Notes: generated from the sequence alone by a model not told the origin. Shown: positions 4,977 through 52,435, counted from the stretch's first letter. The stretch: DNA of 64,000 nt from Candidatus Onthocola gallistercoris (GCA_018715345.1 DVLT01000038.1:7614-71613); one strand, 5' to 3'. A program made the numbers and translations.

Positions 4977-7563
4977 AGAAAAATCAGGGAAAAGGCGCTG
5001 GTATATCCGGTACCGTTGGCAGCTGCTGGCGTTTCTCATACCCATCGTGGTGGCGGCGACTGCCTTTATATGCCAAGGCGTATGGCCTTTTGGCAGCCGA
5101 GGCATCAGTATCATTGATTCCTATCATCAGTATGTGCCTTTTTTTTCCGAGCTGCAGTATAAATGGCGGCATTTGGACAGTATGGCGTATACATGGCATG
5201 GCGGATTGGGAACGAATTTTATTTCCATTTATGCGTATTATCTGGCCAGCCCGCTGAATCTTTTGCTCATACTCATGCCCAGAAATCTGATCATGGAAAC
5301 TTTTGCGATCATTTATCTGCTAAAAATAGGCTTGTGCGGGCTGACATTTTACACTTATCTGAGCCGGAGACTGGGAAAAGGCGGTCTGACTGCTGTTGTT
5401 TTTTCCGTAACGTATGCGTTAAGCGGTTATGTGATCGGTTATGGCTGGAATATCATGTGGCTGGACTGTATTGCGCTTTTACCGATCATCTTGATGGGGT
5501 TGGAAAAGCTTGTCCATCAGAGGGACGGCCTGACCTATGGGCTGGCTCTGGCATTGTGCATTTACTGCAATTATTATATATCCATCATGATCTGCATCTT
5601 TCTTTGTCTGTATTTTGCAGTGCAGCTCATCTTGATGAAGAGAAAAACGATCCGGAAAATAGGGGCCGCAGTGGGAAGATTTACCGGGTATTCCCTGCTT
5701 TCCGGCGCTTTTGGGGCAGTGATGCTGCTTCCGGCTTTTTGTACACTCCTTTCCACAAAGTCTGCTGAAAGTGAATTTCCAACGGCGGTCACTTTTTATA
5801 CAGAAACAGCCGAATTGTTTGGCCAGCATCTGGCGGCTGTGGCCCCCACATCCCTGACGGGTGATCCGAATCTGTACTGCGGTCTGTTCATACTGCTGCT
5901 GATCCCGCTGTATTGGATGAATAAAAAGATCGATTTAAAGGAAAAAATAATTTACAGCCTTCTGGCAGCGTTTATGCTTTTTAGTCTGAATATGAATATT
6001 CTGGCATATATATGGCAAGGATTCCATTTTCCCAACGGTCTGCCCGGAAGATTTTCTTTTATTTACATTTTTCTGCTGATCCGTATGGGCTATGAAGGAT
6101 TTATAAAAAGAAGCGGATGGCCAAAATATTTTTGGTTTTTATCGGCAGTGCCGGCATGCGTCTTACTGGGATGGTCGGTATTCCATCAGGTGGAGAATAT
6201 TTCAGATATCGTATTTTGGATCAACATTGCTCTGACCGGGATCTATATTGTCCTGATCGGTATGGCTGCCCTCCGATGGAAAGGACGCCGGAGTGCCACG
6301 ATCGCTCTTGTCAGTCTGTTCCTTGTGGAAATATGCGGCAATAGTGTTTATGGTCTGTGTGCCAATGGAACAGTGGACAGAAAAGGCTATTACAGCGATC
6401 AGGATGCGGTGGAGGAATTGAAAGGGCGGGTTGCTGCCCAGGATGACAGTTTTTATCGGATGGAAGTGGAAGAAAGGCGCGGCAGGGATGATGTGACCTG
6501 GCATAATCTTCCGGGAATGTCTCTCTTTTCTTCAACGGTGAACGCAGGGACGGACAATCTGATGCGTCGCCTGGGATTTTATGCGGTGACAAACAAATAC
6601 AGCTATGAGGGCGCCACTCCCGAGACCGATGCCATCTTGAACATTAAATACCTTTTGAGCAACAAAAAGCAGGAGACCATCCGTACATTCGAGTGGGAAG
6701 ATTCGGCGGACGGCAAAAACCTGTATAAAAATGACATGGCCCTTGGGCAAGGGTTTATGGTATCCGAAGATATATTGAACTGGGATTATGAGCAGACGAA
6801 TCCGTTTAATGTGCTGAACAGCTTTAATCAGGCAGCAACAGGAAGTTCCCAGCTTTTGTATCAAAGCTTTGGGATCGGTGTCCCGGAGGCGGAAGGGTGC
6901 AGCGTGGAACAGGATACGTGGGCGGATTTCAGCTATTCCCATGGCGAAGAAGGGGGAACGCTTACCTGGACCTATACTGCCCAGTCTGATGAAGAAGTGT
7001 ATATTTACTTTAAAGCAACCCGCTGCGAACGGCTGAGGGTGGAAACGCCGGAAGGCAGCGCAAGCTATACAGATGAGGATGGTCATATCGTGGAGATCGG
7101 CAATCTGTCGGCGGGTGACACGGTTACTCTGACCTTTGAACTGGATGATGCCTATGAAAGCGGAACGATCAAACTCATCGGCGGCCGCCATGACATCCAT
7201 GCTTTTTACGGAATGGTCGATGCCCTCCGGCAAAGTACATGGCGTGTGGATGAATATACCAGTACCATGCTTTCTGGAACAGTCCAAGCGGCACAGGATG
7301 GCATATTATTCACATCTGTACCTTATGAAGAGGGCTGGACGGTTTATGTGGATGGCAAGGAAGTTGAGGCGGAAGCCATCGGTGGCGGCCTGATAGGTAT
7401 ACCATTGGAACAGGGAGAGCATATCGTGAAAATGGTCTATAAAGCTCCTGGATATTTCCCTGGAATTTGTATAACTTTAGGGGCAGCTCTTATATTTGGC
7501 CTGATATTATGGCGTAGGGGCATGGGAAAAAATTACAAAATTTTACAAAAGTGTAAAATCTAA
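4951..7563 (+). CDS. YfhO-family polytopic membrane protein (glycosyl-transfer associated)
   Basis: About 870 aa with many TM helices. The N-terminal IDSYHQYVPF motif and large C-terminal extracytoplasmic domain are typical of YfhO. Confidence 0.7.
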   Translation: MKLMHIKSKEKSGKRRWYIRYRWQLLAFLIPIVVAATAFICQGVWPFGSRGISIIDSYHQYVPFFSELQYKWRHLDSMAYTWHGGLGTNFISIYAYYLASPLNLLLILMPRNLIMETFAIIYLLKIGLCGLTFYTYLSRRLGKGGLTAVVFSVTYALSGYVIGYGWNIMWLDCIALLPIILMGLEKLVHQRDGLTYGLALALCIYCNYYISIMICIFLCLYFAVQLILMKRKTIRKIGAAVGRFTGYSLLSGAFGAVMLLPAFCTLLSTKSAESEFPTAVTFYTETAELFGQHLAAVAPTSLTGDPNLYCGLFILLLIPLYWMNKKIDLKEKIIYSLLAAFMLFSLNMNILAYIWQGFHFPNGLPGRFSFIYIFLLIRMGYEGFIKRSGWPKYFWFLSAVPACVLLGWSVFHQVENISDIVFWINIALTGIYIVLIGMAALRWKGRRSATIALVSLFLVEICGNSVYGLCANGTVDRKGYYSDQDAVEELKGRVAAQDDSFYRMEVEERRGRDDVTWHNLPGMSLFSSTVNAGTDNLMRRLGFYAVTNKYSYEGATPETDAILNIKYLLSNKKQETIRTFEWEDSADGKNLYKNDMALGQGFMVSEDILNWDYEQTNPFNVLNSFNQAATGSSQLLYQSFGIGVPEAEGCSVEQDTWADFSYSHGEEGGTLTWTYTAQSDEEVYIYFKATRCERLRVETPEGSASYTDEDGHIVEIGNLSAGDTVTLTFELDDAYESGTIKLIGGRHDIHAFYGMVDALRQSTWRVDEYTSTMLSGTVQAAQDGILFTSVPYEEGWTVYVDGKEVEAEAIGGGLIGIPLEQGEHIVKMVYKAPGYFPGICITLGAALIFGLILWRRGMGKNYKILQKCKI

Positions 7564-15198: not shown

Positions 15199-16569
15199 AT
15201 GGCGATAAATATACCGGAAAAAGCGGCATGGATCCTGAAGCAGCTGAATGCCCATGGCTATGAAGCCTATGTGGTGGGCGGATGTGTCCGGGACAGCATT
15301 TTAGGCAGGGCGCCGGAGGACTGGGACATAACCACTTCTGCCAAGCCGGAGCAGATCAAAGCGGTTTTCTCAAGGACGGTGGATACGGGAATTGCCCATG
15401 GCACGGTGACAGTATTGGTGGATCGGGAAGGGTTTGAAGTGACCACGTACCGTATCGATGGCGCCTATGAAGATCATCGGCATCCGAAGGAAGTGGCCTT
15501 TACTGCGGATCTGAAAGAAGATCTTAGACGCAGAGATTTTACGATCAATGCCATGGCCTATCATCCGGATACAGGATTAGTGGACTGTTTTGGCGGTCTG
15601 GAAGATCTTAAACAAGGGATCATCCGCTGTGTGGGCGAACCGATACAGCGATTTGAGGAAGATGCGCTGAGAGTACTGAGGGGTATCCGTTTTTCTGCGC
15701 AGCTTGGGTTTGCGATCGGACCGGAGACGGAAGCGGCCATACGGGCAAAAAGTCCGGATCTGAAGCGGATCAGCGCGGAACGTATCCAGGCGGAGCTGGT
15801 GAAGCTGCTCATCTCGCCTCATCCGGAATATATAAAAAAGGCCTGTGAACTGGGAGTGACGGCGGTGATCCTGCCGGAATATGACCGGATCGTAGGTGTT
15901 GACCAGCATACGCCCAATCACATTTATGATGTGGAGGAGCACACGCTGATCGCTTTGAAAAATATTGACGCCACGCCGATCCTCAGACTGACCATGCTGA
16001 TCCATGATTTCGGGAAACCTGTGGTCAAAAAGACAGACGGAGGACGGGATATTTTTTACAGACATCCGGAAGTGAGCGCAGTCATGGCCAGGGATATATT
16101 AAAACGGCTGAAGTTCGATAACTATACGCTGGAGCATGTGTACCGGCTGGTGAAGTGGCATGGACTGAAATATTATCCCACAGAGAAAAGCGTCCGACGG
16201 GCCCTGAACCGAGTAGGCGCGGATATCTTTGAAGATTTTATCCGTGTACAGCGGGCGGATGTATCTGCCAAGAATCCGGCGGTGGTGCCGGAGAAGCTGA
16301 GGCTGTTGGATGAAAAAGAAAAGATATATCGTCAGATCATTGAGCGAGGCGACTGTTTTGAAGTGCGGACATTGGCGGTGGGAGGAAAGGATCTGATCCA
16401 GGCCGGCATTGAACCGGGGCCTCTTCTGGGAGCAGTACTTGAACGCCTGGTGGAACGGGTGATCGACGATCCGGAGCTGAACACAAAAGAGCGGCTGATC
16501 GCGCTGGCGCTGAAAGAGAAGGATGATCCCTCCATCTTTGATGAGAAAGCGTATTTCTTTGAAAAATAA
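15199..16569 (+). CDS. cca: CCA-adding tRNA nucleotidyltransferase
   Basis: GGCVRDSILGR...DWDITT head-domain motif, RRDFTINA, C-terminal HD-like region. ATG 15199 lies 7 nt after GGAGGGG; the track start at 15184 sits inside the RBS. Confidence 0.85.
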   Translation: MAINIPEKAAWILKQLNAHGYEAYVVGGCVRDSILGRAPEDWDITTSAKPEQIKAVFSRTVDTGIAHGTVTVLVDREGFEVTTYRIDGAYEDHRHPKEVAFTADLKEDLRRRDFTINAMAYHPDTGLVDCFGGLEDLKQGIIRCVGEPIQRFEEDALRVLRGIRFSAQLGFAIGPETEAAIRAKSPDLKRISAERIQAELVKLLISPHPEYIKKACELGVTAVILPEYDRIVGVDQHTPNHIYDVEEHTLIALKNIDATPILRLTMLIHDFGKPVVKKTDGGRDIFYRHPEVSAVMARDILKRLKFDNYTLEHVYRLVKWHGLKYYPTEKSVRRALNRVGADIFEDFIRVQRADVSAKNPAVVPEKLRLLDEKEKIYRQIIERGDCFEVRTLAVGGKDLIQAGIEPGPLLGAVLERLVERVIDDPELNTKERLIALALKEKDDPSIFDEKAYFFEK

Positions 16570-41182: not shown

Positions 41183-41228
41183 TAAAGACAAAAAAAGCGT
41201 ATAAAAGTACAAAAAATAAGTCGAATCC

Positions 41229-41287
41229 GGACAGAAAATGACAGAATCCGGACACATCATTCCAAAGGGATAAATATATGATACAAT
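41229..41287 (+). promoter_or_regulatory. Promoter P1 with a tripartite direct-repeat operator (candidate LytTR site)
   Basis: GGACA (41229) N6 GACAG (41240) N5 GGACA (41250), then 27 nt, then TGaTACAAT with -10 at 41282-41287. The wider 11-mer GAATCCGGACA is repeated with 21-bp periodicity. Confidence 0.55.
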
Positions 41288-41302
41288 ACGGAGGCAGAGA
41301 TC

Positions 41303-42028
41303 ATGGGGGAAAACATGAGAATAGCAGTTGTGGATGACGAACCCTTTTTCCAGGAGGAAATCATACGATGTCTGAAGGAGAGCGGGAGAAAACTGGGGAT
41401 ACGGATGAGTATCGAAAGTTTTGATTCGGCAGAGCAGCTGCGCCGGGAGATTAGGGAAACCGGAACCTTCAGCGCCTATTTTCTGGATTACAGTCTGGAA
41501 GGGGAGAATGGTTTTGAACTGGCCCAGTATCTGAACCGTCATGGCGAGCATCCGTATATCATCTTTGTCACTTCCTATGACGGGATGGCGGTGGATGCTT
41601 ACCAGCTGGATGCGTTCCGGTTTATTCCAAAGCTGGAAATGGAATCGCGGATCGAAGAGGCTGTAACAAGTATATACAGGGAATGTCAGCCGGGAAACCG
41701 GCGGTATTATATCCTGGTAACCAGAGATCGGATCGATCGGGTGGATTACCGGGATATCCTGTATTTCAAAAAGGATGGACGATATACCCAGCTGCGGACG
41801 GCCAGACATTGGGTCAGTATCCGCAAATCTCTGAAGGAAATATGGGACGAGCTGCCGCCGGAAGAATTTGTTTTTGTCAACAAAAGCTGTATTGTCAATC
41901 TGAGCCATACAGTGGGTGTCCAGGAACGGTATGTGATCCTGAGCAGCCGGGAGGAGCTGCCCATCAGCCGCTCCCAGTACAAACCCGTCAGAGACAAGAT
42001 TTTTGAATACTGGCAGGCGAAAAGATGA
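41303..42028 (+). CDS. LytTR/AlgR-family response regulator (RR1)
   Basis: Receiver domain (IAVVDDE, FLDYSL) and C-terminal LytTR domain (ILYFKKDGRYTQL...FVFVNKSCIVNL). GGAGG lies 8 nt before ATG 41303. Confidence 0.85.
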   Translation: MGENMRIAVVDDEPFFQEEIIRCLKESGRKLGIRMSIESFDSAEQLRREIRETGTFSAYFLDYSLEGENGFELAQYLNRHGEHPYIIFVTSYDGMAVDAYQLDAFRFIPKLEMESRIEEAVTSIYRECQPGNRRYYILVTRDRIDRVDYRDILYFKKDGRYTQLRTARHWVSIRKSLKEIWDELPPEEFVFVNKSCIVNLSHTVGVQERYVILSSREELPISRSQYKPVRDKIFEYWQAKR

Positions 42029-43335
42029 GTCTATTTTACGCAATTTGGGAATTTGTATATTGTTTTGCAGAACTGTTTGTCACATGGCGGCTGTTGTCGG
42101 CCATTTTTCTCCTTCCCCATCGTGTGAGGGAGGATTGGAAGGCGTTTCTCTGGTTCGTGCCCCTGGGGATCATTCAGGGCGTGAATGCCCAGGGTGTTAT
42201 GATGTCCATCGCCATATTGTATATCAATATCGCCTATATGACTGTCCTGTATGTGAAAAAGGCGGAGACGGATAAAAAGGATGTGCTGCTGATCGTGGCA
42301 ACCGTGTGCAGTTCATTCTATCTGTTCCGGCTGGCGACGATACATTTGATCGGATTTTTATTGGATATCGGGGAGTTTGGCCGATATCTTTACATGGAGC
42401 ATAGTATTGAACGGCTTTTGGTACAGCTATTCCAAATAGTATGCCTGGCCATTTTAAGCGGAGGTTTGACGCATCATTTTGAAAAGTCGCCTTTTGACAT
42501 GGAATGCTGGCGTTGGACATTGCTTTTGGTAACAGTGACAGAGAATCTGGCTGTCATTTATTTTCAAGGGATTTTTATTAATTACCAGTGGAAGGATATC
42601 CTACAGGATGTTTTGTTGCTGTCCTTTGTGCTGCACATACTGGCAACACTCGTTCTGGCCAAGTTCCAATGGCGGTATCAGAAGATGCGGCTGGACACGG
42701 CGGACATACGGAATGCGGAGATACTGGACAAGTATCACCAGTTGGAAGAAGTGCAGAAGGCACAGGCGTCCATGCTCCATGACTTGAGGAATTATCTGGT
42801 GGTCTTAAACGGGGAGATCAGCATGGGTAACCGGGAAGCGGCCAAAAGGACGCTGAGAGATATCATAGATACTGTGCCCAACGTGGAACCTAAAACCTAT
42901 ACCGGCCACGGCGTCATCGACTGGCTGCTCCGGGTAAAAAGCGCGGAGGCGGCGGAAAAGGGCGTGGAGATGTTCATCGCCGGCGATAAGGTGGGCGAAC
43001 TGGCCATCACCGAACTGGAGATATGTACGCTGCTGGGTAATCTTTTGGACAATGCGGTGGAAGCGGCCCAGAAGGCTCCGGAGAAATGGGTGGATGTGGA
43101 GATCTGGCGGGAAAAGGATCTTTTGTTCCTGAATGTGGGCAACAGTCTGGCGGAGCCGCCAAAGCAGAGTGGAAGGTATTTCCTCACCTCCAAGCAGGAC
43201 AAGATGCACCATGGCATCGGCCTGAGAAATGTGGACCGGGTGGTGAGAAAATATAGCGGCAAGCTGAACTTCAAAGTGGACGAGGAACGGTTTGACGCGG
43301 AAGTCATATTAAATGCGAAAAGGAGACAGGAATGA
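42025..43335 (+). CDS. AgrC/HPK10-type membrane histidine kinase (GHKL)
   Basis: 6-7 N-terminal TM helices. H-box MLHDLRNYL, N-box LLGNLLDNAVEAA, G-box HGIGLRNV. ATGA overlap with the RR1 stop. Confidence 0.8.
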   Translation: MSLFYAIWEFVYCFAELFVTWRLLSAIFLLPHRVREDWKAFLWFVPLGIIQGVNAQGVMMSIAILYINIAYMTVLYVKKAETDKKDVLLIVATVCSSFYLFRLATIHLIGFLLDIGEFGRYLYMEHSIERLLVQLFQIVCLAILSGGLTHHFEKSPFDMECWRWTLLLVTVTENLAVIYFQGIFINYQWKDILQDVLLLSFVLHILATLVLAKFQWRYQKMRLDTADIRNAEILDKYHQLEEVQKAQASMLHDLRNYLVVLNGEISMGNREAAKRTLRDIIDTVPNVEPKTYTGHGVIDWLLRVKSAEAAEKGVEMFIAGDKVGELAITELEICTLLGNLLDNAVEAAQKAPEKWVDVEIWREKDLLFLNVGNSLAEPPKQSGRYFLTSKQDKMHHGIGLRNVDRVVRKYSGKLNFKVDEERFDAEVILNAKRRQE

Positions 43336-43481
43336 TGAGAGAACAGAACATGGACAGGATCAACGTGGAAGAAGTGAAAAGTGAAATGGAACAGATGAAA
43401 TCTTTCAAAAACGCAGAGATTGAGCCGAGAATGTCTATTACAGTTACATGTACAGCACTCTTTACAGTTATCTGCTGTTGA
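43332..43481 (+). CDS. Lanthipeptide precursor peptide (LanA-like), 49 aa, absent from the ORF track
   Basis: AGGAGA at 43321-43326. The ATG overlaps the kinase TGA. Translation: MMREQNMDRINVEEVKSEMEQMKSFKNAEIEPRMSITVTCTALFTVICC. A LanM gene starts 87 nt downstream. Confidence 0.8.
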   Translation: MMREQNMDRINVEEVKSEMEQMKSFKNAEIEPRMSITVTCTALFTVICC

Positions 43482-43491
43482 TCGAATAGTC

Positions 43492-43531
43492 AAAAAGGGA
43501 TAAAAATCCGCTGATTTTTATCCCCTTTTTG
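43492..43531 (+). terminator. Intercistronic hairpin/terminator between precursor and lanM
   Basis: Perfect 12-bp stem: GGGATAAAAATC (43497-43508), loop CGCT, GATTTTTATCCC (43513-43524). Followed by CTTTTTG. Confidence 0.75.
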
Positions 43532-43568: not shown

Positions 43569-46559
43569 ATGTTTGATAAAAGACAAAGTTATCTGAATGA
43601 GCGGATCTACAAAAAGCATGAGGGAGGTGTGCGGACGCCGGAGTTATGGAAAGAGCTGTTTGGGGATGCATCATGTCAGATGATCGAAAACCGTTATCCA
43701 CAGGTGCGCGCCTATTTTGCCCAGGAACCCTATACAGTGGAAGAGGGTTGGCCGGATGCTTGCGACGGAAAGATCTTTACCCTGTATCAGCACGGGTTTT
43801 ATCACGGAAAAGCCCAATGGAATAAAGAAGTATTTGACAGCTTCTACATTCCATGGCTGAGCACGGCCAGGGAATATTTCCGATACATTTATCCGGACAG
43901 CAGACAGGATACGGCCTTTTTTACGGAGGGTTTGCCAGGATTCCGAAAAAAGATGGTCACTTTGTCTTTAAGGGTACTGATCCAGGAGATGAAAGTCTGG
44001 GGCGATGATGGGGAATCGGGAGAACTATACCAACGATACAACGAGGATGCCTTAAAGGATGAGATTTATGTCGATCAACTGTATGAAAAATATCCGGTCA
44101 TGCTGCGGGAATTGATCCGGTGTGTTCGTCAGACATGTGAATCCATCAAAGAATGTTTGGAATATCTGGAAAAAGACCGGGGGGAGATCTGCCAAAGGCT
44201 GCTGGGAGGCCGTTCCTTTGGAAAAGTAACAGTAGTCAAAGATGCTTTGGGCGATACCCATCATAATGGGCGATCCGTACTGGAACTGACCTTGGATACA
44301 GGAGATAAACTGATCTATAAACCCCATAACCTGGAGCATGAAGCGTTTTATCAAGAGATGACCCATATTTTATCAGAAGGCTGTCGGGTGGAAACCTATG
44401 TCCGACCCATTATTTGCCGGGAAGATCACGGATGGGAAAAACAGATCGAAGCTTCTTCATGTGGGACCCGGGAAAACGTACAGGATTATTACTACCGGAT
44501 GGGTATCCATCTGTTTAGCGCCTGGCTGTTTTCTGTAAAAGATCTGCATTACGAAAATATCATTGCCATGGGAGTTTATCCGGTTTTTGTGGATACAGAA
44601 GCGCTGTTGGTGCCGGAACGAAAGGGGGATCCGGAGCTTTTGTTCGAAGTGGAACGGTGGAAGAATCAGTCGGTCCTTGCCACCTGTCTGCTGCCTTCCC
44701 GGACTCCCGGTTTTGGAAGGGATATCAGCGGCATCTGCGGAAGCGGCGGAAAAAGCTGCCTGAAAACCCCCACAGTGCTGGATCCTGGAACCGGGAAGAT
44801 GCGCATGGGGTATGCCATGGGAGATATGGCGGAAGGCAAAAACATCCCCCGAACGCCAAGGGGATATGAGGTTCCAGAAAACTTTGCGGATGAGATTGAA
44901 AAAGGATTCACAGATGCTTTTCAGTATGCCTTGTTTATCAAGTCCCGGCTGATGAAAGCCGTGGAGGATCGGAAGGATATAAAGGGACGGTATCTATACC
45001 GATATACCCAGGAATATACATTAAATCTGTGGAGTTCCTATAACCCTTTGTTTTTATCAGATGGGGGTATGCGCCACATGTTTCTCATGAACATGGCAGA
45101 GAATAAGGAAAGCCAAACGATCCGCCGGATCAATGATCTGGAAATCGAGCAGATGCTTGGCGGAGACATTCCCTATTTTACGGCGGATTCCCTGGATACC
45201 GGCTTGCATGATCCTAAAGGGGAGATGGTGGAAGGGTGGTTTGCGGAAACGCCAAAGGCGATGGCGGCCCGCCGGATCTGCCGACTGTCAGAGCAGGATA
45301 TGGGAAATGAACGGACGGCGATAAGGGAAGCTTTTGACCGGAATTTTTCCCTCAACGATATGGTATGTACGGCAGAAACGGACAGGGAAACAGTCGTACG
45401 TTGGATACTGGAAAAAATCGATGGGGAAAAGATCCTCCTGCATGATGGCAGCGTGGCCTGGGTACAGAAAGACTACAGCGCCGAAGGCCAGGGGGCAAGG
45501 ACTACGGATATATTAAGCATGAACCTGTATGACGGTATCGGCGGGATCGCCTTGTTCATTGCCGCCGGCTGGAAAGTGCTCAAAGACGACAGACTTCGGC
45601 AGATGATGGATGTGTTGAGACAGACATTATTTGCCTATACGGATCAGATGATGCAGTTGGAGCGAAAGAGCAAGACCGGCGCTTTCGGCGGTGAGGCATC
45701 CATTGTCTATACCTATCATCTGTTGTATAAGATCACAGGAGAAAAGATCTATCTCACCTATAGCCAGCGACATGTGAAGATACTGGAACGGTATATAGAA
45801 ATGGACGACTGGTATGATGTGGTGGATGGAAATGCAGGAGCCATCCTTGTGCTTTTAAATCTTTACGAGGAGACGGAAAAGGGGCGTTATCTCCGGGATG
45901 CCATTAAAGCCGGCATATGTCTGCTTGAGCACCATGTGGAGCAGCAGCAGGGGATCGCCTGGAAAAACAAAGCGTCCGGTCAGATGTTGGCAGGCTTTTC
46001 CCACGGCGACAGCGGAATGTTCCTGGCATTGTCCCGGCTGTATCATCATACCGGTGATGAAGGCGTTCTGGATGTGTTAAAGCAGATCCGGGAACATGAG
46101 ATGTCACTGTATGTGGAAGAAGTGGACGACTGGCTGGATCTTCGGGGAAAGACGCCCGAAGTGCGGGAAACGGTGGCCTGGTGCCACGGCGCGGGCGGTA
46201 TCCTTTTGTCCCGCCTGAAAAGCTATCCCTATCTGACGGGAACGTTGAAGGAAGAGGTGGCGAAAGATATCCATCGGGCAGCCCAAAAGGCGGCGGTTGG
46301 CCATATACGGAAGGACTTCTGTCTCTGCCACGGCAATTTCGGGAACCGATGGATCCGGGATGCCTATAGGCTTTTTTCAGGAGAGACCGGGACAGAAAAA
46401 CCGGTGTCCGACCTGTTGATAGAAAAGATCCGAGAGCATGGGCTGGAAGCGGAAGAAAGCCGGCGTTACAGTCTGATGCACGGCCTGGCCGGCATCGGCT
46501 ACGGCCTGCTGCGGGAGATGGATCCGTCCCTGCCGGATATACTGGCAGTGGAAGTGTAA
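43569..46559 (+). CDS. lanM: Class II lanthipeptide synthetase LanM
   Basis: 996 aa. N-terminal DUF4135-type dehydratase region. C-terminal LanC-like cyclase with GFSHGDSG, WCHGAGG and CLCHGNFG (Zn-ligand and catalytic His motifs). Confidence 0.9.
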   Translation: MFDKRQSYLNERIYKKHEGGVRTPELWKELFGDASCQMIENRYPQVRAYFAQEPYTVEEGWPDACDGKIFTLYQHGFYHGKAQWNKEVFDSFYIPWLSTAREYFRYIYPDSRQDTAFFTEGLPGFRKKMVTLSLRVLIQEMKVWGDDGESGELYQRYNEDALKDEIYVDQLYEKYPVMLRELIRCVRQTCESIKECLEYLEKDRGEICQRLLGGRSFGKVTVVKDALGDTHHNGRSVLELTLDTGDKLIYKPHNLEHEAFYQEMTHILSEGCRVETYVRPIICREDHGWEKQIEASSCGTRENVQDYYYRMGIHLFSAWLFSVKDLHYENIIAMGVYPVFVDTEALLVPERKGDPELLFEVERWKNQSVLATCLLPSRTPGFGRDISGICGSGGKSCLKTPTVLDPGTGKMRMGYAMGDMAEGKNIPRTPRGYEVPENFADEIEKGFTDAFQYALFIKSRLMKAVEDRKDIKGRYLYRYTQEYTLNLWSSYNPLFLSDGGMRHMFLMNMAENKESQTIRRINDLEIEQMLGGDIPYFTADSLDTGLHDPKGEMVEGWFAETPKAMAARRICRLSEQDMGNERTAIREAFDRNFSLNDMVCTAETDRETVVRWILEKIDGEKILLHDGSVAWVQKDYSAEGQGARTTDILSMNLYDGIGGIALFIAAGWKVLKDDRLRQMMDVLRQTLFAYTDQMMQLERKSKTGAFGGEASIVYTYHLLYKITGEKIYLTYSQRHVKILERYIEMDDWYDVVDGNAGAILVLLNLYEETEKGRYLRDAIKAGICLLEHHVEQQQGIAWKNKASGQMLAGFSHGDSGMFLALSRLYHHTGDEGVLDVLKQIREHEMSLYVEEVDDWLDLRGKTPEVRETVAWCHGAGGILLSRLKSYPYLTGTLKEEVAKDIHRAAQKAAVGHIRKDFCLCHGNFGNRWIRDAYRLFSGETGTEKPVSDLLIEKIREHGLEAEESRRYSLMHGLAGIGYGLLREMDPSLPDILAVEV

Positions 46560-46648
46560 AAAAGTTGTAAGAACTGGCGGAACGGATGCTATAACCGGAC
46601 GTTATATGGTAAAATCAATAGTAGGAGACGAACTGTATATAGATTGTT

Positions 46649-47455
46649 TTGGCAGGCAGCAGAATCGTGTCTGAAAATCAAGCATACACAGAAGGTCAGA
46701 AACTGCCCGGATATCTGAAGATCGGGATTGTGGACGATGAAGTTTATTTCCAGGAACAGATATATGGCATTTTAAAGAAATGTGAAAAATGTTTAAAAAT
46801 CCGCATGGATATCCGGATATTTTCTTCGGCAGAGGAGCTGATGGAAAGTCTGAATGAGAAAGAAATATTTACAGCCTTTTTTCTGGATTATCGTCTGGGC
46901 GATGACAATGGTTTTGCGCTGGCAGAAAAGATCCAAGCCTTTTTACCGGATGCTTTTTTGATCTTTGTCTCCTCTTACTCGGAAAAAGTATTTGATGCGT
47001 TTCGGCTGAAAGCTTTTCGATTTATCCCCAAAACGGATATGGAAAAACGTATAAGCGAGGCTATCGGGTCGATTTACCGGGAATTGGAAAGCGTGAATAC
47101 GGCATATTATGTGGTGGCAACGGGCCAGGGAATGGAACAGATCTGTTTCAGGGATATACTTTATGTCCGTAAAGAAGGCAAATACAGTGTGATCGTGACC
47201 AAGGCGGGTGAAAGACGTGTGAGAAAATCGCTGAAGGAGATTTCCGGGGAATTGCGGGAAAACGAATTTGCCTATACGGCAAGAGATTATATTGTTAATC
47301 TGGAGCATATATCCGGTTTTTCCGGCAATGATGTGATCTTGGAAGACGACTGTTTGATTCCGGTAAGCAGAGAGAGGAGAAAGGACCTAAAACAAAAAAT
47401 TTGGGACTATTACGAACAAAAGAGGAAGGAATCGAAAAATAGAAATAAAAATTAG
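46649..47455 (+). CDS. LytTR-family response regulator (RR2), paralog of RR1
   Basis: IGIVDDE, FLDYRL and a LytTR domain (ILYVRKEGKYSVI...YIVNLEHI). There is no in-frame ATG before the receiver domain. Candidate starts are TTG 46649, GTG 46667 and ATT 46643, all poorly spaced from AGGAGA (46623-46628). Confidence 0.75.
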   Translation: MAGSRIVSENQAYTEGQKLPGYLKIGIVDDEVYFQEQIYGILKKCEKCLKIRMDIRIFSSAEELMESLNEKEIFTAFFLDYRLGDDNGFALAEKIQAFLPDAFLIFVSSYSEKVFDAFRLKAFRFIPKTDMEKRISEAIGSIYRELESVNTAYYVVATGQGMEQICFRDILYVRKEGKYSVIVTKAGERRVRKSLKEISGELRENEFAYTARDYIVNLEHISGFSGNDVILEDDCLIPVSRERRKDLKQKIWDYYEQKRKESKNRNKN

Positions 47456-47472
47456 AAAGATACGGTATTCAA

Positions 47473-47531
47473 GGACAAAAAAAGACAGTTGGAGGACAAT
47501 CCTCTGCGAATTTTTTAGAAACTGTTATACT
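47473..47531 (+). promoter_or_regulatory. Promoter P2 with the same tripartite operator as P1
   Basis: GGACA (47473) N6 GACAG (47484) N5 GGACA (47494), then 27 nt, then TGtTATACT with -10 at 47526-47531. Confidence 0.55.
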
Positions 47532-47640
47532 GGAACCAACGAATGAAGCTGGCTTATTCAAAAGATTTAAGGGGGGCGATACCGTTGGGGATGGAACAAT
47601 GGAAACTGCAGACAATCAGAAAAGGGAGGAGAGGAAGAGT

Positions 47641-48057
47641 ATGAGGAAAAGGATATCAGCTATTCTAATGACAAGCTTAGTGGCTTTTTTGACAATCAGC
47701 CAGTTTGGGGGAAATGCTTTTGCGGGGAATATTTCAGATACGGAATATTACTTTTCAATTGATTACGCTTTAGACACAAGAGATACACCGGCACGGACAA
47801 AATATGATGATACTTCACATTATATGTATCCAAACCGTTATATTAATCAGTCATATGTTGCTTGGGGAGTTGGATGCGCTTGGAATGGTACTGAAATTGA
47901 AAGTTATGATGAACTTGCGATAACGATTACAGGACCTTACGAATATTATATTCCGAATTATTGTTATGAAAATGATAGACCAATGGCGCGAGTAAGAGCA
48001 TATTCTTATTATGATGATTTATCAGTGGCTGGTGTATGGAGCCCAGATAGTATTTAA
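47641..48057 (+). CDS. Small secreted Tyr-rich protein of unknown function
   Basis: GGGAGGAGAGGA RBS. Sec signal MRKRISAILMTSLVAFLTISQFGGNAFA with predicted cleavage before GN. The mature protein is about 110 aa with 17 Tyr and 2 Cys. The gene is visibly AT-richer than its neighbours. Confidence 0.6.
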   Translation: MRKRISAILMTSLVAFLTISQFGGNAFAGNISDTEYYFSIDYALDTRDTPARTKYDDTSHYMYPNRYINQSYVAWGVGCAWNGTEIESYDELAITITGPYEYYIPNYCYENDRPMARVRAYSYYDDLSVAGVWSPDSI

Positions 48058-48103
48058 CAAAATGTGTATAAAGTATACATATGAAAGTTATAAAAAATCT
48101 GAA

Positions 48104-48124
48104 GGGGTCTTTATTTAAGACCCC
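48104..48124 (+). terminator. Weak hairpin after the secreted-protein gene
   Basis: GGGGTCTT, loop TATTT, AAGACCCC. The T tract that follows is poor (TCTCTG). Confidence 0.35.
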
Positions 48125-48152
48125 TCTCTGAGAAACTGTTGGAGGTGAAATT

Positions 48153-48914
48153 TTGAGAAGAATATGCGGTATATTGGCCGTGGTACTTTCCTTTTTTACC
48201 CTTGGGTGCGCCTGTTCCGCTCCGGCGGACACGGAAACGGAGAGTCCGGCTCAGACCAACTATGTGGCAGAAGCGCATAAAGGGGAGACAACGGACGTGT
48301 TGCTTGAGGACGGCGGGGGGCCCCGGGGGGAACAGCCGGAGGAGATCATGCCGGAAGCAAAGCTGTTTGATCAGGAACAGCAGGTGAGAAACGGTGATAT
48401 CCAGTTGACCTTTCAGACGATCACCTATTATGACAATGTGGACGAATCAGGGATACAGTTGGGTGAAGATGCGGAAAATTACTGGATCCGCTATGATGTG
48501 ATCGATGAATCCGGCCAGTGCCTGGATCATGCGCGTATTGCCATGGCACAGGTAAACATCGCCAACCTGTCGGAGAAGGCGGAAACCATCAGCCTGATGG
48601 AATTTAACCTTCGGTTTTATGAGCCGGACACGGGGAACGCTTCTGTGACACGGGAAGTGGGTTATGCCGATCCGCTCCAGTCCAATGACGATCCAAAGAA
48701 GATGTATGAATATACGTTTGAACCGGGAGAAGATGTGGATTTCACTTTAGGTTATGTATTAAGAAGTGAGGATGTGGAAAGGATGGAAAAGGGAGAGCTG
48801 ATTCCCACCATGGAAGTGAACAACCGGGGATATCTTCCCACAGAGGAGATGACGAAGGATCATCTGGATGAAATGGCTTACATAGAACTTCCGATTCCGG
48901 AGGAAGAACCATGA
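48153..48914 (+). CDS. Putative lipoprotein (LanI-like position)
   Basis: TTG start after GGAGGTG. Signal peptide ending FFTLGCAC (lipobox-like), then an acidic extracytoplasmic domain that looks beta-rich. Confidence 0.55.
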   Translation: MRRICGILAVVLSFFTLGCACSAPADTETESPAQTNYVAEAHKGETTDVLLEDGGGPRGEQPEEIMPEAKLFDQEQQVRNGDIQLTFQTITYYDNVDESGIQLGEDAENYWIRYDVIDESGQCLDHARIAMAQVNIANLSEKAETISLMEFNLRFYEPDTGNASVTREVGYADPLQSNDDPKKMYEYTFEPGEDVDFTLGYVLRSEDVERMEKGELIPTMEVNNRGYLPTEEMTKDHLDEMAYIELPIPEEEP

Positions 48915-49741
48915 GAAAGATGATAAAGACAGAATTGCGCAGGGCCTTCTGCAACCGGACGTTTTTTGTCATCCTCGGGCTTGGGCTGGCTTTTGTCATA
49001 TGGCATACCGTCCAATACAAAATACCCTATACCCGGTCGCTGGGAGTGAGTTATCACGGGGAAGAGCTCTATCCTCATAATGTATATCAGGAATGTATTC
49101 TTGGCAACAGTATGAGTGTTCATGCTTATATTTACAGCATGTGCCTTCCCATATTGGCGGCGCTCCCCTTTGGCGCGTCTGCCTGCCAGGATCGGCAGAG
49201 CGGATACCGGGATCAGATCCTGACCCGGACAAAACGGAGCACATATTACCAGGCAAAATGGATTGCCGCCTTTCTTTCCGGCGCGGCGGCGGTTGTCCTT
49301 CCGATGATTTTTGATTTTATTGTGACCCTGTGGTTTTTTCCGACGCTGCCCGGAGACAGTATGAGCCGTTGGGACAGTGTGGGGATCGATGGGATGATGG
49401 CAGAAATTTATTATCATATGCCCATGGTATATATGCTGGCAAAGTGGATGTTCCTGGCTGCTTTTGGCGGTATTTTCGCAACAATGTCGCTGACTGCGGG
49501 GATGTTCGCAAAAAATATGGTTGTCGTACTGTTGACACCGGTCCTTGTCCAACTTTTATATAATTCGGCGACATCGTATCTGAATGCCCGGAACTGGCAG
49601 TTTATGGCGTATTATACGGTTTATCAGCCGTTGTTTTCCATGCGGCTGTGGAAACCTGTTCTGGTGGGCGGCATCATGCTGCTTATCTGCCTGCTTTTAT
49701 ATTGCCGGAAGGCAAGCGTGAAGGACGCGTTAAATACATAG
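48911..49741 (+). CDS. ABC-2-type transporter permease
   Basis: Six hydrophobic segments. 4-nt overlap with the upstream gene. Immediately precedes an ABC ATPase gene. Confidence 0.6.
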   Translation: MRKMIKTELRRAFCNRTFFVILGLGLAFVIWHTVQYKIPYTRSLGVSYHGEELYPHNVYQECILGNSMSVHAYIYSMCLPILAALPFGASACQDRQSGYRDQILTRTKRSTYYQAKWIAAFLSGAAAVVLPMIFDFIVTLWFFPTLPGDSMSRWDSVGIDGMMAEIYYHMPMVYMLAKWMFLAAFGGIFATMSLTAGMFAKNMVVVLLTPVLVQLLYNSATSYLNARNWQFMAYYTVYQPLFSMRLWKPVLVGGIMLLICLLLYCRKASVKDALNT

Positions 49742-49753
49742 GAGGGGATTCAT

Positions 49754-50419
49754 ATGTATGTGGAGTTGAAAGATGTTTCCAAGCAGATCCGTCGCAGCCC
49801 GATACTGAACCATATAACGGTGGGATTTGAAAAGGGACGCATATATGGCCTGAAAGGAAAAAACGGATCCGGAAAGACCATGCTTTTGCGCATGATCGCC
49901 GGTCTGATCCTTCCAAGTTCCGGCCAGGTGCTGATCGATGGAAAAATACTTGGAAAAGATATGTCCTTTCCTGAGAGTATCGGCATACTTATCGAAAATC
50001 CGTCCTTTATAGGCGGCGAAACGGGGCTTTCCAATCTATCCATTCTGGCGTCTATTCAGAAAAAAGCGGATCGGAAAGATTTGGAAGAAACTCTTGAACG
50101 GGTGGGGCTGAATCCCGGGGATAAACGGATTTACAGAAAGTACTCCCTCGGCATGAAGCAGCGGCTGGGTATCGCGGCGGCGATCATGGAAAAACCGGAT
50201 ATCATCCTTCTTGATGAACCGATCAATGCCCTGGATGACAAAGGGGTGGAAGCGGTACGGCAGATACTGGCAGAAGAGAAGAAACGGGGAGCGCTGATCA
50301 TCGTTGCCTGTCATGATGAGACAGAACTCCGGCTGCTTTCAGATGAGATTTTTTATATGCAGGGCGGAGAGATCACAGACCATGAGATACTGGAGAAGGA
50401 ACGGGAGGATAAGCCGTGA
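49754..50419 (+). CDS. ABC transporter ATP-binding protein
   Basis: Walker A GKNGSGKT, signature YSLGMKQR, Walker B IILLDEP. Confidence 0.9.
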   Translation: MYVELKDVSKQIRRSPILNHITVGFEKGRIYGLKGKNGSGKTMLLRMIAGLILPSSGQVLIDGKILGKDMSFPESIGILIENPSFIGGETGLSNLSILASIQKKADRKDLEETLERVGLNPGDKRIYRKYSLGMKQRLGIAAAIMEKPDIILLDEPINALDDKGVEAVRQILAEEKKRGALIIVACHDETELRLLSDEIFYMQGGEITDHEILEKEREDKP

Positions 50420-50961
50420 GATATAAATATTTGTGGACGGCTGTGGCCGTCATCTTTGCTGTGACCGGCATCATCGCGGCGGTACGGAGCGTACAGCTGA
50501 ACCATCAATATCCCGTTCCCAGGAACGTGATGGTTTCGGAGAATACACCGGCAGAAAAGAACGGATGCGCCATTACAGTGACGGACAGCGTCCTGGAACC
50601 GCTGGCGGATGACATGGAAGATCTGCCTGTGGGCGAACCGATATATATGGTCAAGGCATCGCTGCGGATCGAGAATATCAGTGACTATGACAGCAGCATC
50701 TATCTGACAGATTTCGGATTACAGTCGGATATATGGTATAACCAGATGAGCCGGCACGAGACGACGGTGCTGAATCCGGAACTGGAATCCGCCGTCATAA
50801 CTTTACATCCGGGAGAATCCGAAGAAATCGTGCTTCCTTTTATGATATATTGGGACAGGGGAATGGAAGAAATGGCAAAACAGCTTATGGCGGGCGAGGC
50901 AGATTTGGATCTTGTCATCACTCAGTATCCGGTCAAACGGTTCTGCCGGCTGTCTTACTGA
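50416..50961 (+). CDS. Membrane-anchored extracytoplasmic protein, possibly DUF4352-like
   Basis: One N-terminal TM segment and a C-terminal domain that looks beta-rich. 4-nt overlap with the ATPase gene. Confidence 0.45.
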   Translation: MRYKYLWTAVAVIFAVTGIIAAVRSVQLNHQYPVPRNVMVSENTPAEKNGCAITVTDSVLEPLADDMEDLPVGEPIYMVKASLRIENISDYDSSIYLTDFGLQSDIWYNQMSRHETTVLNPELESAVITLHPGESEEIVLPFMIYWDRGMEEMAKQLMAGEADLDLVITQYPVKRFCRLSY

Positions 50962-50979
50962 CAGAAAAGAAGTGAAAAG

Positions 50980-51615
50980 ATGGGTAATAAAAAGATGATC
51001 TGGCTGCTGCCTGTTTTCGGAGCCATCCTGCTTATGGATATCCATCAACGGGCGGCTACATACAATATATTTTTTGCGTCCGATGGCGTTTTGGGATTTC
51101 TGATCTATCTTTCATCCATGGATACGGCGATTTATCCGATCCTGCTCCTTCTGCCAGCATATTTAAGTGTCCGAAGATATTTTCGGCTTGCTGTGATCAT
51201 ACGGAAGAAACATCGGAAAAGACTGGTATGGGAACAGACCAGAAACCTGATGCTGTTGGCGGGGCTGTTTTCGCTTTTGTATACAGCGCTTGCCTTCAGA
51301 GAAGTTTTAGGTAGACTGTGGCAGCCGGTGCCTGCAGAAGTATGGTTCCTGTTTTTGATCTTTAATTTTTTTAAACAGTCTTTTTTTATGCAGGTTTTTC
51401 TTCTGTGCCGGTGGATCAGCGGACACTATATACCGGGCATCCTTCTGGTGATTTGGTGCTGTGTTGCTGCCGCCCGGACGGCTGTGCCGGCTTTTGTATT
51501 CGGAACGATGGAAAAGACGTTGTTTTTCTGCCTGATTTTTTTGATGACGGATACCTTATTGCTGATACTGAATCTGGCAGCGGGGAAAAGATGTGATTTT
51601 ATTGAAAATACGTAA
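50980..51615 (+). CDS. Polytopic membrane protein
   Basis: About 6 hydrophobic segments. No family recognised. Confidence 0.45.
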   Translation: MGNKKMIWLLPVFGAILLMDIHQRAATYNIFFASDGVLGFLIYLSSMDTAIYPILLLLPAYLSVRRYFRLAVIIRKKHRKRLVWEQTRNLMLLAGLFSLLYTALAFREVLGRLWQPVPAEVWFLFLIFNFFKQSFFMQVFLLCRWISGHYIPGILLVIWCCVAAARTAVPAFVFGTMEKTLFFCLIFLMTDTLLLILNLAAGKRCDFIENT

Positions 51616-52435
51616 AAAAAGCAGCCTGAGCGGAATGATCCGTTATGATATGGCCCAGGGAATATGGAAAAATATCGGCTGGTTTTTGCCGGTGGTTTAC
51701 TTTACTTTCGCGTTCTTTGCGAAAACACGGCAGATGCTGGCTCTGCCCTTTGCCCCTCCGGTGGATAAGATGGGGCTGACAGATCTGGTTTTTTCATTTT
51801 TTGCCGGTATGGAGACATATCATCCGGGTCCCGGGCAGATGTTTGATCCGCCCATCCAGTGGCTGCTTGTCTTTTTTTATCTTTCTTTTCTCATCAGTTT
51901 CTATCCCGCCGCGGATATGAAAAAATATGGGCGGAATCTGATGATCCATGTCAAGAGCCGGGAAGTTTACTGGTACAGTAAATGTCTGTGGGTTTTTGCG
52001 ACAACCATGGTTTATTATGGACTGATCCTGCTTTTGATGGCCATTTTTCTTTTGATGACCGGAAACTATTCACCGGGGTTTCATAAAGATACAGGGGCAT
52101 TTCTGGCCGGTGTGATCGTTGGTCCGGAAACGGGAGCAGAGATTTGTTTTTTCATCCTGGTGACACCTTTTCTGGTCATGCTTTCTTTGGCCCTGTTCCA
52201 GAATCTGCTGAGTTTCGTGCTGTCGCCGGTTTACGGATTTTTGGTCAATATCGGTTTGGTCATCTGTTCGGCGTTTTTTAATACCAGTCTATGCGTGGGG
52301 CAGATTGCCATGTTCAAGAGAAGTTTTATTTTGGGCGGAAGTGTGGGATGGCCCCATCTGGTCATACCGATACTGCTCTCTGTACTCAGCATCCTGGCAG
52401 GCGGTATGTATTTTAAACGAAAAGATATCCTGTAA
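51593..52435 (+). CDS. Polytopic membrane protein (ABC-2 permease-like)
   Basis: About 6 hydrophobic segments. Overlaps the upstream gene. Confidence 0.45.
   Translation: MILLKIRKKSSLSGMIRYDMAQGIWKNIGWFLPVVYFTFAFFAKTRQMLALPFAPPVDKMGLTDLVFSFFAGMETYHPGPGQMFDPPIQWLLVFFYLSFLISFYPAADMKKYGRNLMIHVKSREVYWYSKCLWVFATTMVYYGLILLLMAIFLLMTGNYSPGFHKDTGAFLAGVIVGPETGAEICFFILVTPFLVMLSLALFQNLLSFVLSPVYGFLVNIGLVICSAFFNTSLCVGQIAMFKRSFILGGSVGWPHLVIPILLSVLSILAGGMYFKRKDIL

Follow-up and report, generated by a model that had tools for sequence, protein, structure and literature searches.

A probable LytTR operator at two promoters of a class II lanthipeptide locus with an AgrC-like kinase in Candidatus Onthocola gallistercoris

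The stretch of DNA analyzed here (the window; 64,000 nt of Candidatus Onthocola gallistercoris, GCA_018715345.1 DVLT01000038.1:7614-71613) contains a lanthipeptide locus whose genes, assigned with Pfam and NCBIfam profile searches, all lie on the + strand. RR1 (41315–42028) encodes a response regulator with a receiver domain (Pfam Response_reg, 54.1 bits) and a LytTR domain (61.7 bits). Its reading frame opens at 41303, and the ATG at 41315 (MRIAVVDDE, with GGGGG before it) matches the start of the orthologue. The start is most likely this ATG, not 41303, because a transcript beginning about 7 nt past the −10 element would be without the GGAGG at 41290–41294, and because the orthologue in a Lachnospiraceae metagenome-assembled genome (locus L001) starts at the equivalent position, behind GGGGG. 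Counted from the Met at 41315, the conserved aspartate of the FLDY motif is Asp58. The RR1 stop is overlapped by the start of a membrane histidine kinase gene (42025–43335), the product of which has a hydrophobic N-terminal region with multiple transmembrane segments, an LHDLRN H-box, and a GHKL domain (HATPase_c_5, 77.5 bits), and is of the AgrC/ComD-like type. The kinase stop is in turn overlapped by the ATG of lanA (43332–43481), which encodes a 49-aa precursor, MMREQNMDRINVEEVKSEMEQMKSFKNAEIEPRMSITVTCTALFTVICC; both junctions, RR1/kinase and kinase/lanA, are ATGA overlaps. The RR1-kinase-peptide operon that the first-pass annotation had placed behind the promoter P1 was thus correctly recognized, the peptide being a LanA-type precursor. 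Its core, SITVTCTALFTVICC, contains five Ser/Thr and three Cys residues and is conserved in L001, and the precursor matched no Pfam or NCBIfam family. In the gap between lanA and lanM lies an intrinsic terminator or attenuator (43497–43531, + strand; −18.4 kcal/mol, z = −4.8), and an equivalent hairpin is conserved in L001. The lanM gene (43569–46559) encodes a class II lanthipeptide synthetase of 996 aa with the Pfam domains DUF4135 and LANC_like, a TIGR03897 score of 636.7 bits (cut-off, 304), and the zinc-ligand motifs WCHG and CHG at residues 871 and 920.

A LanM with an adjacent LanA, as expected of a class II lanthipeptide cluster, is therefore present. In contrast, the region from 38 to 54 kb contains no C39 or ABC_membrane exporter (LanT(P)), and LanA has no GG/GA leader cleavage site: its leader ends in EPRM (EPKT in L001). 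In both LanA orthologues, EP(R/K)x abuts the conserved core SITVTCTAL..ICC (43424–43434 in the window). Maturation of LanA may depend on a trypsin-like or other external protease together with a different exporter, and the conserved EP(R/K) before the core hints that this protease is extracellular and trypsin-like. The hallmarks of an agr locus, AgrB and an AgrD tail, were likewise not found in this region: the AgrB family had no Pfam match among the 16 proteins of 38–54 kb, and LanA has no AgrD-like C-terminal tail, the peptide ending in ...TVICC.

Downstream of lanM, RR2 (46649–47455; likely start, GTG at 46667) encodes a second LytTR response regulator, a paralogue of RR1 (43% identical) with an intact receiver domain. 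Its LytTR domain scores 61.8 bits, which, like the 61.7 bits of RR1, is above the Pfam cut-off of 22.6 bits. No regulator genes other than those of the RR1/RR2 system were found by Pfam in 38–54 kb. The promoter P2 follows RR2 and precedes a gene for a small secreted protein (47599–48057; signal peptide from Met 47641), which is 30% identical to the L001 protein o151, encoded at the same position. The remainder of the P2 operon (48153–52435) encodes a DUF5027 lipoprotein, an ABC-2-like permease, a LanF-like ABC ATPase, a DUF5028-like protein, and two membrane proteins; the Pfam matches in this interval are DUF5027 and ABC_tran, and the DUF5028 label is taken from the annotation of a related assembly (L016). 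The best NCBIfam match of the ABC ATPase is TIGR03740 (lantibiotic protection), with 163 bits, below the cut-off of 310. These genes are presumed to form an immunity/transport module. On the other side of the locus, upstream of P1 (38110–41182), a Metallophos phosphoesterase and a 640-aa AAA/SMC-like ATPase form an SbcCD-like pair, which is syntenic in L001, L009, and L016 and shows no sign of belonging to the regulon.

The first-pass annotation had described a tripartite operator, GGACA-N6-GACAG-N5-GGACA, at 41229 and, with identical spacing, at 47473. The exact motif is GGACAGAAAATGACAGAATCCGGACA at P1 (41229–41254, + strand) and GGACAAAAAAAGACAGTTGGAGGACA at P2 (47473–47498, + strand). When both strands of the 64-kb window were searched with up to two mismatches allowed, these were the sole matches, against 0.04 expected from dinucleotide shuffles, and none of 100 shuffles contained two copies. 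A composite pattern that adds the phased extended −10 element (GGAC-N17-GGAC, 23–25 nt, TGnTAnnnT) also occurs twice in the window, only at P1 and P2, whereas 300 Markov-1 simulations gave an expectation of 0.003 per window. The repeat with a 21-bp period claimed for P1 was recovered as well: the 11-bp sequence GAATCCGGACA occurs at 41223–41233 and again at 41244–41254.

Two tandem 21-bp units, each of the form rACmG-N5-GGACA, describe the operator better than three equivalent sites do, because in L001 an rACmG-type element also precedes the distal GGACA. Each unit has about 15 informative positions, and the 21-bp period places both units on the same face of the helix. At P1, the proximal unit (GACAG-AATCC-GGACA, 41240–41254) includes the supposed middle element, GACAG, as its upstream half, and the distal unit (AGTCG-AATCC-GGACA, 41219–41233) has an intact GGACA core and a degenerate upstream half. 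At P2, the proximal unit (GACAG-TTGGA-GGACA, 47484–47498) is complete and the distal unit (CGGTA-TTCAA-GGACA, 47463–47477) retains the GGACA core alone, so that in the window both proximal units are complete and both distal units keep only GGACA. The middle element varies, from GACAG in the window to GACCG or AACCG in L001, and is absent in a more distant clade described below. The term “tripartite” fits the GGACA/GACAG/GGACA succession of this window, but it does not describe the general structure.

Single units were set aside as evidence. ACNG-N5-GGACA occurs 11 times in the window, against 1.4 expected from dinucleotide shuffles, with one copy at the 5′ end of lanA (43343–43356). Most of these hits lie inside genes, and the excess probably reflects codon or purine-strand bias rather than additional binding sites; dinucleotide shuffles do not model codon bias.

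Both operators are followed by an extended −10 element: TGaTACAAT at P1 (41279–41287; hexamer TACAAT, 41282–41287) and TGtTATACT at P2 (47523–47531; hexamer TATACT, 47526–47531). With the operator included, P1 spans 41219–41287 and P2 spans 47463–47531, on the + strand. At both promoters, the −10 hexamer lies 27 nt beyond the final A of the proximal GGACA; the 27 nt that the first-pass annotation had put before TGaTACAAT is accurate for the hexamer TACAAT, but only 24 nt separate the operator from the TG. It had also noted the lack of a good −35 box, in agreement with our scans: with 16–18 bp spacing, the best hexamer at either promoter matches TTGACA at no more than three of six positions, and neither P1 nor P2 was among the promoters listed by a sigma-70 scan. 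Transcription is predicted to start at about 41294 (P1) and 47538 (P2). When +1 is assumed to lie about 7 nt 3′ of the −10, the two units occupy about −75 to −61 (distal) and about −54 to −40 (proximal). The last base of the proximal GGACA is thus at about −40, 4 nt before the −35 hexamer slot (17-bp spacing assumed); this gap is 9 nt if a 9-mer is registered on ACmG-N5. In the P2 leader, a 16-nt box, GGGGGCGATACC(G/A)TTG, is present in the window (47572–47587) and in L001 (about 6309–6324), approximately 12–19 nt 5′ of the conserved ATG, within a leader that has otherwise diverged. No significant RNA fold was detected in the P2 leader, and Rfam had no match anywhere in 40.5–53.5 kb.

RR1 is rare. 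Among 5.8 billion proteins, we found one cluster at 100% and one at 71% identity, and the next matches were only about 32% identical, so the RR1 clade comprises just two lineages in that set. A scan of GTDB genomes yielded one orthologous locus, L001, and a scan of JGI metagenomes yielded only L024, a strain variant of the window locus; the contigs carrying P0001 and P0002 contributed nothing further. L001 has the gene order RR1-HK-lanA-lanM of the window, with identities of 72% for RR1, 61% for the kinase, and 63% for LanM, and RR2 is absent. The L001 RR1 promoter reads GGACAaaaaacGACCGaacacGGACA, 27 nt, and TGgTATAAT, with the units GACCG-gatac-GGACA (850–864) and GACCG-aacac-GGACA (871–885). 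A second promoter, directly 3′ of lanM, reads GGACAaaaatcAACCGatggaGGACA, 27 nt, and TGaTATAAT, with the units TACCG-ttgga-GGACA (6204–6218) and AACCG-atgga-GGACA (6225–6239). Both therefore retain GGACA-N16-GGACA, the 27 nt, and TGnTATAAT. Between the window and L001 promoters, 21 of 26 operator positions are identical, compared with 10–12 of the 40 bp upstream and 12–16 of the 27-nt spacer; the four promoters of the lanthipeptide loci count as two orthologous pairs, not as four independent samples. Because L001 carries both operators without RR2, an RR1-type regulator suffices there. The same contrast was seen among close relatives: in the 119-nt promoter windows of L024, L017, and L009, all seven substitutions fall in the 27-nt spacer and none in the operator or the −10, and the length of the spacers (41255–41281 and 47499–47525 in the window) is constant.

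Six independent assemblies (L016–L021), 98.7–99.5% identical to the window, are without P2. In L016, the segment corresponding to 47451–48206 of the window is swapped for about 5 kb (L016 10785–15740), and likewise in L017–L021. The lost segment comprises the last codons of RR2, P2, the gene for the secreted protein, and the 5′ part of the DUF5027 gene; in its place are an o151-like gene, which is truncated, and a second ABC module, the orthologue of the P2 operon of L001. This arrangement without P2 is the commoner one, whereas that of the window recurs in L024, and control by P2 is therefore dispensable in nature. A 19-nt sequence, AAAAAAGTTGTAAGAACTG, is identical at 46559–46577 of the window, before RR2, and at 15591–15609 of L016, before the DUF5027 gene; in both, CGGACG and then a TGnTAAAAT extended −10 lie 3′ of it. 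This segment may mark a recombination junction of the two arrangements or form a second, perhaps constitutive, promoter cassette. The CGGACG half-site, 8–10 nt before TGnTAAAAT upstream of RR2, was rejected as a third operator because it has no partner repeat and its spacing is not fixed.

The homologues that are 30–35% identical to RR1 form a separate clade, 65–84% identical among themselves and paired with a short, soluble HATPase_c_5 kinase. At five of the seven loci fetched, the regulator/kinase pair adjoins a divergently transcribed pair of genes for ABC proteins of about 600 aa. In each of these five, the sole GGAC-N17-GGAC within about 10 kb lies in the regulator/ABC intergenic region, facing the ABC genes, with TGnTAnnnT 27 nt (in L012, 28 nt) further on. 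The sites are all on the − strand (L010, 7904–7846; L012, 3923–3862; L068, 3928; L070, 4925; L071, 4915) and read aatttaaGGACAAAATC..AATTCGCGGAC, 27/28 nt, and TGtTATGAT. L014 and L069, the remaining two loci, lack the ABC pair and had no site of the GGAC-N17-GGAC type in the DNA fetched. In this clade, the first half of the unit (rACmG) is entirely unconserved. Over all nine promoters, the invariant positions are the distal GGACA, two A's of an A-tract, the proximal GGAC, and the TG, TA, and T of the extended −10; the GGACA cores are 21 bp apart in nine of nine, and the distance to the −10 is 27 nt in eight. The only genes that the distant loci have in common with the window locus are those for the LytTR regulator and the kinase, and the motif is therefore tied to that regulator family. 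The distant module appears to be an uncharacterized regulator-operator-ABC unit present in several gut Clostridia. Matches to GGAC[AG]-N16-GGAC[AG] in the high-GC sequences L030–L067 were discarded, as they lie inside receiver-domain coding sequence (LLDMKMPEMDG).

The arrangement established by experiment for LytTR activators consists of two direct repeats 12 (11–13) bp apart, 4–11 bp 5′ of the −35, at promoters that often have an extended −10, and it results in positive autoregulation (PMC6193735). The first-pass annotation had proposed an operator of this type, beside the −35 region of activator-dependent promoters, and several lines of evidence support it: the repeats are direct, not inverted, and about 21 bp apart centre to centre, as in that paradigm (PMC6193735); the proximal repeat lies 4 nt from the −35 position, within the 4–11 bp range; two LytTR regulators, RR1 and RR2, are encoded beside the promoters; and the arrangement is conserved at both L001 promoters and at the five loci of the distant clade. 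The LytTR consensus [TA][AC][CA]GTTN[AG][TG] (WMMGTTNRK) has no match inside 41219–41254 or 47463–47498, the closest sequence being ACAGTTGGA (47485–47493), with eight of nine positions, and the AgrA 9-mer ACAGTTAAG is likewise not matched by the repeats. The first half of the unit, ACAG/ACCG, resembles the 5′ end of LytTR 9-mers such as ACAGTTAAG of AgrA and ACCGCTTAT of BrsR, and functional LytTR repeats can depart from the family consensus (PMC6193735). PDB sequence searches with the LytTR domain returned only ComE (with the full-length query) and, weakly, 3d6w; AgrA was not found. In the AgrA-DNA structure, the LytTR domain contacts two successive major grooves. By analogy, a footprint of about 15 bp per protomer would fit a LytTR domain spanning two major grooves.

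The anatomy and rarity of the motif, its conservation, and its co-occurrence with one regulator clade are direct observations. On these grounds, we consider it likely that the motif serves as operator for the LytTR regulator encoded in the locus itself, with RR1 the likeliest binder and RR2 perhaps sharing the site. We infer binding, activation, the transcription starts, and the kinase signal, and the following mechanism is proposed. The kinase would sense a peptide, most economically (and probably) the mature lanA product, and phosphorylate RR1. An extended −10 of the TGn type without a −35 implies that RNA polymerase would need a bound dimer of the phosphorylated regulator for its recruitment, and an RR1 dimer on the two units would recruit it to P1 and P2. 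Transcription from P1 would yield RR1, the AgrC-like kinase, and lanA, that is, positive autoregulation, and lanM would be reached, in attenuated form, by read-through of the conserved terminator at 43497–43531. Transcription from P2 would express the gene for the secreted protein together with the ABC/immunity genes. RR2 might bind the site as well or compete for it and, judging from L001, would be dispensable for maintenance of the operator.

It is less probable, and on balance unlikely, that RR2 binds the operator instead of RR1 or competes for it as an anti-activator or second input. RR2, 43% identical to RR1, retains an intact receiver as well as a LytTR domain, its gene lies immediately 5′ of P2, and many residues of the LytTR domain are common to RR1, RR2, and the distant clade. 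The sequences do not distinguish RR1 from RR2 as the binder. However, L001 has both operators and no RR2, P1 lies directly 5′ of RR1 in the usual autoregulatory layout, and the distant clade with this operator is no nearer to RR2 than to RR1. The exclusive version, in which RR1 acts elsewhere, is unlikely given L001.

We regard as quite improbable the reading that the site is a repressor operator or the target of an unrelated factor, or that the A-tract and repeats serve only as a structural, UP-like element. The departure from the canonical LytTR consensus and the A-tract that follows the distal GGACA in nine of nine promoters would be compatible with such readings, but a site from about −40 to −75 at a promoter lacking a −35 has the placement expected of an activator; moreover, the motif co-occurs with one LytTR regulator clade across otherwise unrelated operons, and the locus contains no further regulator gene. 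Finally, P1 and P2 could come from one duplicated promoter, and a terminator-like hairpin (TGGAGGAcaaTCCTCTG with a T-run) overlaps the proximal unit of P2, but a chance likeness or a non-functional remnant of promoter duplication, with the proximal GGACA of P2 belonging to an RR2 terminator, is scarcely credible: two occurrences were observed against 0.003–0.04 expected, the motif is conserved in L001 and at five distant loci with diverged flanks, and the hairpin, rejected as a terminator, folds no better than shuffles (z = −0.1), is absent from L001, and is weakened by L024 substitutions that leave the GGACA repeats intact.

The operator of the locus's LytTR regulator, as proposed here, resembles those of AgrA (P2/P3), ComE, BlpR, PlnC/D, and the Streptococcus mutans regulators HdrR and BrsR in its direct repeats, the centres of which are about 21 bp apart (9 + 12 bp; PMC6193735). 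As at P1 and P2, the repeats in known LytTR operators lie a few bp from the −35, next to a core promoter that is weak or has an extended −10. Known LytTR systems also positively autoregulate their own operon and have a second promoter for effector or immunity genes (PMC6193735), as predicted here. Unlike in the known operators, the core is GGACA after rACmG-N5, with about 15 bp of information per unit, and the distance to the −10 is 27 nt in eight of nine promoters, belonging to two regulator clades about 32% identical. The putative regulatory device is thus a LytTR direct-repeat operator of a known kind, and the principle is not new; what is new is the predicted core sequence and the fixed 27-nt phasing common to two regulator clades.

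The locus resembles agr (agrBDCA) in that one operon encodes a LytTR regulator, a multi-pass GHKL (HATPase_c_5) kinase, and a small precursor peptide, and in its putatively autoinducing promoter architecture. RR1 scores 22 bits against the NCBIfam AgrA model, for which the equivalog cut-off is 400; it is of the same type as AgrA but not an orthologue. The locus differs from agr in lacking AgrB (Pfam, 38–54 kb) and an AgrD-like tail, in having a complete LanM after the peptide, and in its gene order, RR-HK-peptide. With autoinduced lantibiotic clusters, it would share structural-gene and immunity promoters under a two-component system encoded in the cluster, and a lanA transcript that would end at a leaky terminator before the modification gene. 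The regulators of nisin (NisRK), subtilin (SpaRK), and the class II systems BovKR and SalKR are of the OmpR or LuxR type. Those clusters have EnvZ-like kinases and other types of operator, whereas here a LytTR regulator is paired with a kinase of the AgrC-like type, the gene of which is translationally coupled to lanA.

In the literature searched, the only relevant paper on LytTR or AgrC together with a lanthipeptide concerned CA_C0082 (PMC10301443). In clostridial agr loci, an agr-type two-component system lies beside this gene of the lanM family, the expression of which depends on AgrA; its homologues are truncated (670–728 aa) and without zinc ligands, and the loci have no LanA and a complete agrBD (PMC10301443). 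In contrast, the LanM described here is full length (996 aa) with zinc-ligand motifs and has an adjacent LanA, and the locus has no agrBD. We found no description, in that literature, of a complete class II lanthipeptide pathway combined with an AgrC-like/LytTR pair and with lanA inside the RR-HK operon.

A further, tentative proposal, which we hold to be possible but somewhat doubtful, is that the locus is an agr-like autoinduction circuit with LanM and LanA in the roles of AgrB and AgrD, and that the thioether-cyclized lanA product is the signal of the kinase. If so, phosphorylated RR1, acting through the GGACA tandem operator, would boost production of RR1 itself and induce the ABC/immunity operon, and the response would be tuned or uncoupled by RR2 and by the deletion of P2 that occurs naturally in most strains. 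The analysis provides a concrete predicted operator for an uncharacterized clade of LytTR regulators in gut Clostridia: two copies of rACmG-N5-GGACA at a 21-bp period, placed 27 nt 5′ of an extended −10. The clade would include regulators that act on ABC transporter operons of several other species. The analysis further defines the putative regulon and promoter parts of a new and rare class II lanthipeptide cluster, which should be useful for heterologous activation, and gives a basis for asking whether a lanthipeptide can be the signal of an agr-type kinase.

A different tandem was observed in L002 (Oscillospiraceae), which encodes a 22%-identical LytTR regulator. Between the kinase stop (7414) and the next gene start (7597), CCTTGTCTAWTYGGACA occurs twice on the − strand as a perfect 21-bp tandem (7425–7461). 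Read on the + strand, it is TGTCC-N5-GACAAGG, past a terminator and 26 nt before TGgTAATAT. This tandem is apparently another LytTR operator of the GGACA/TGTCC kind, in the opposite orientation.
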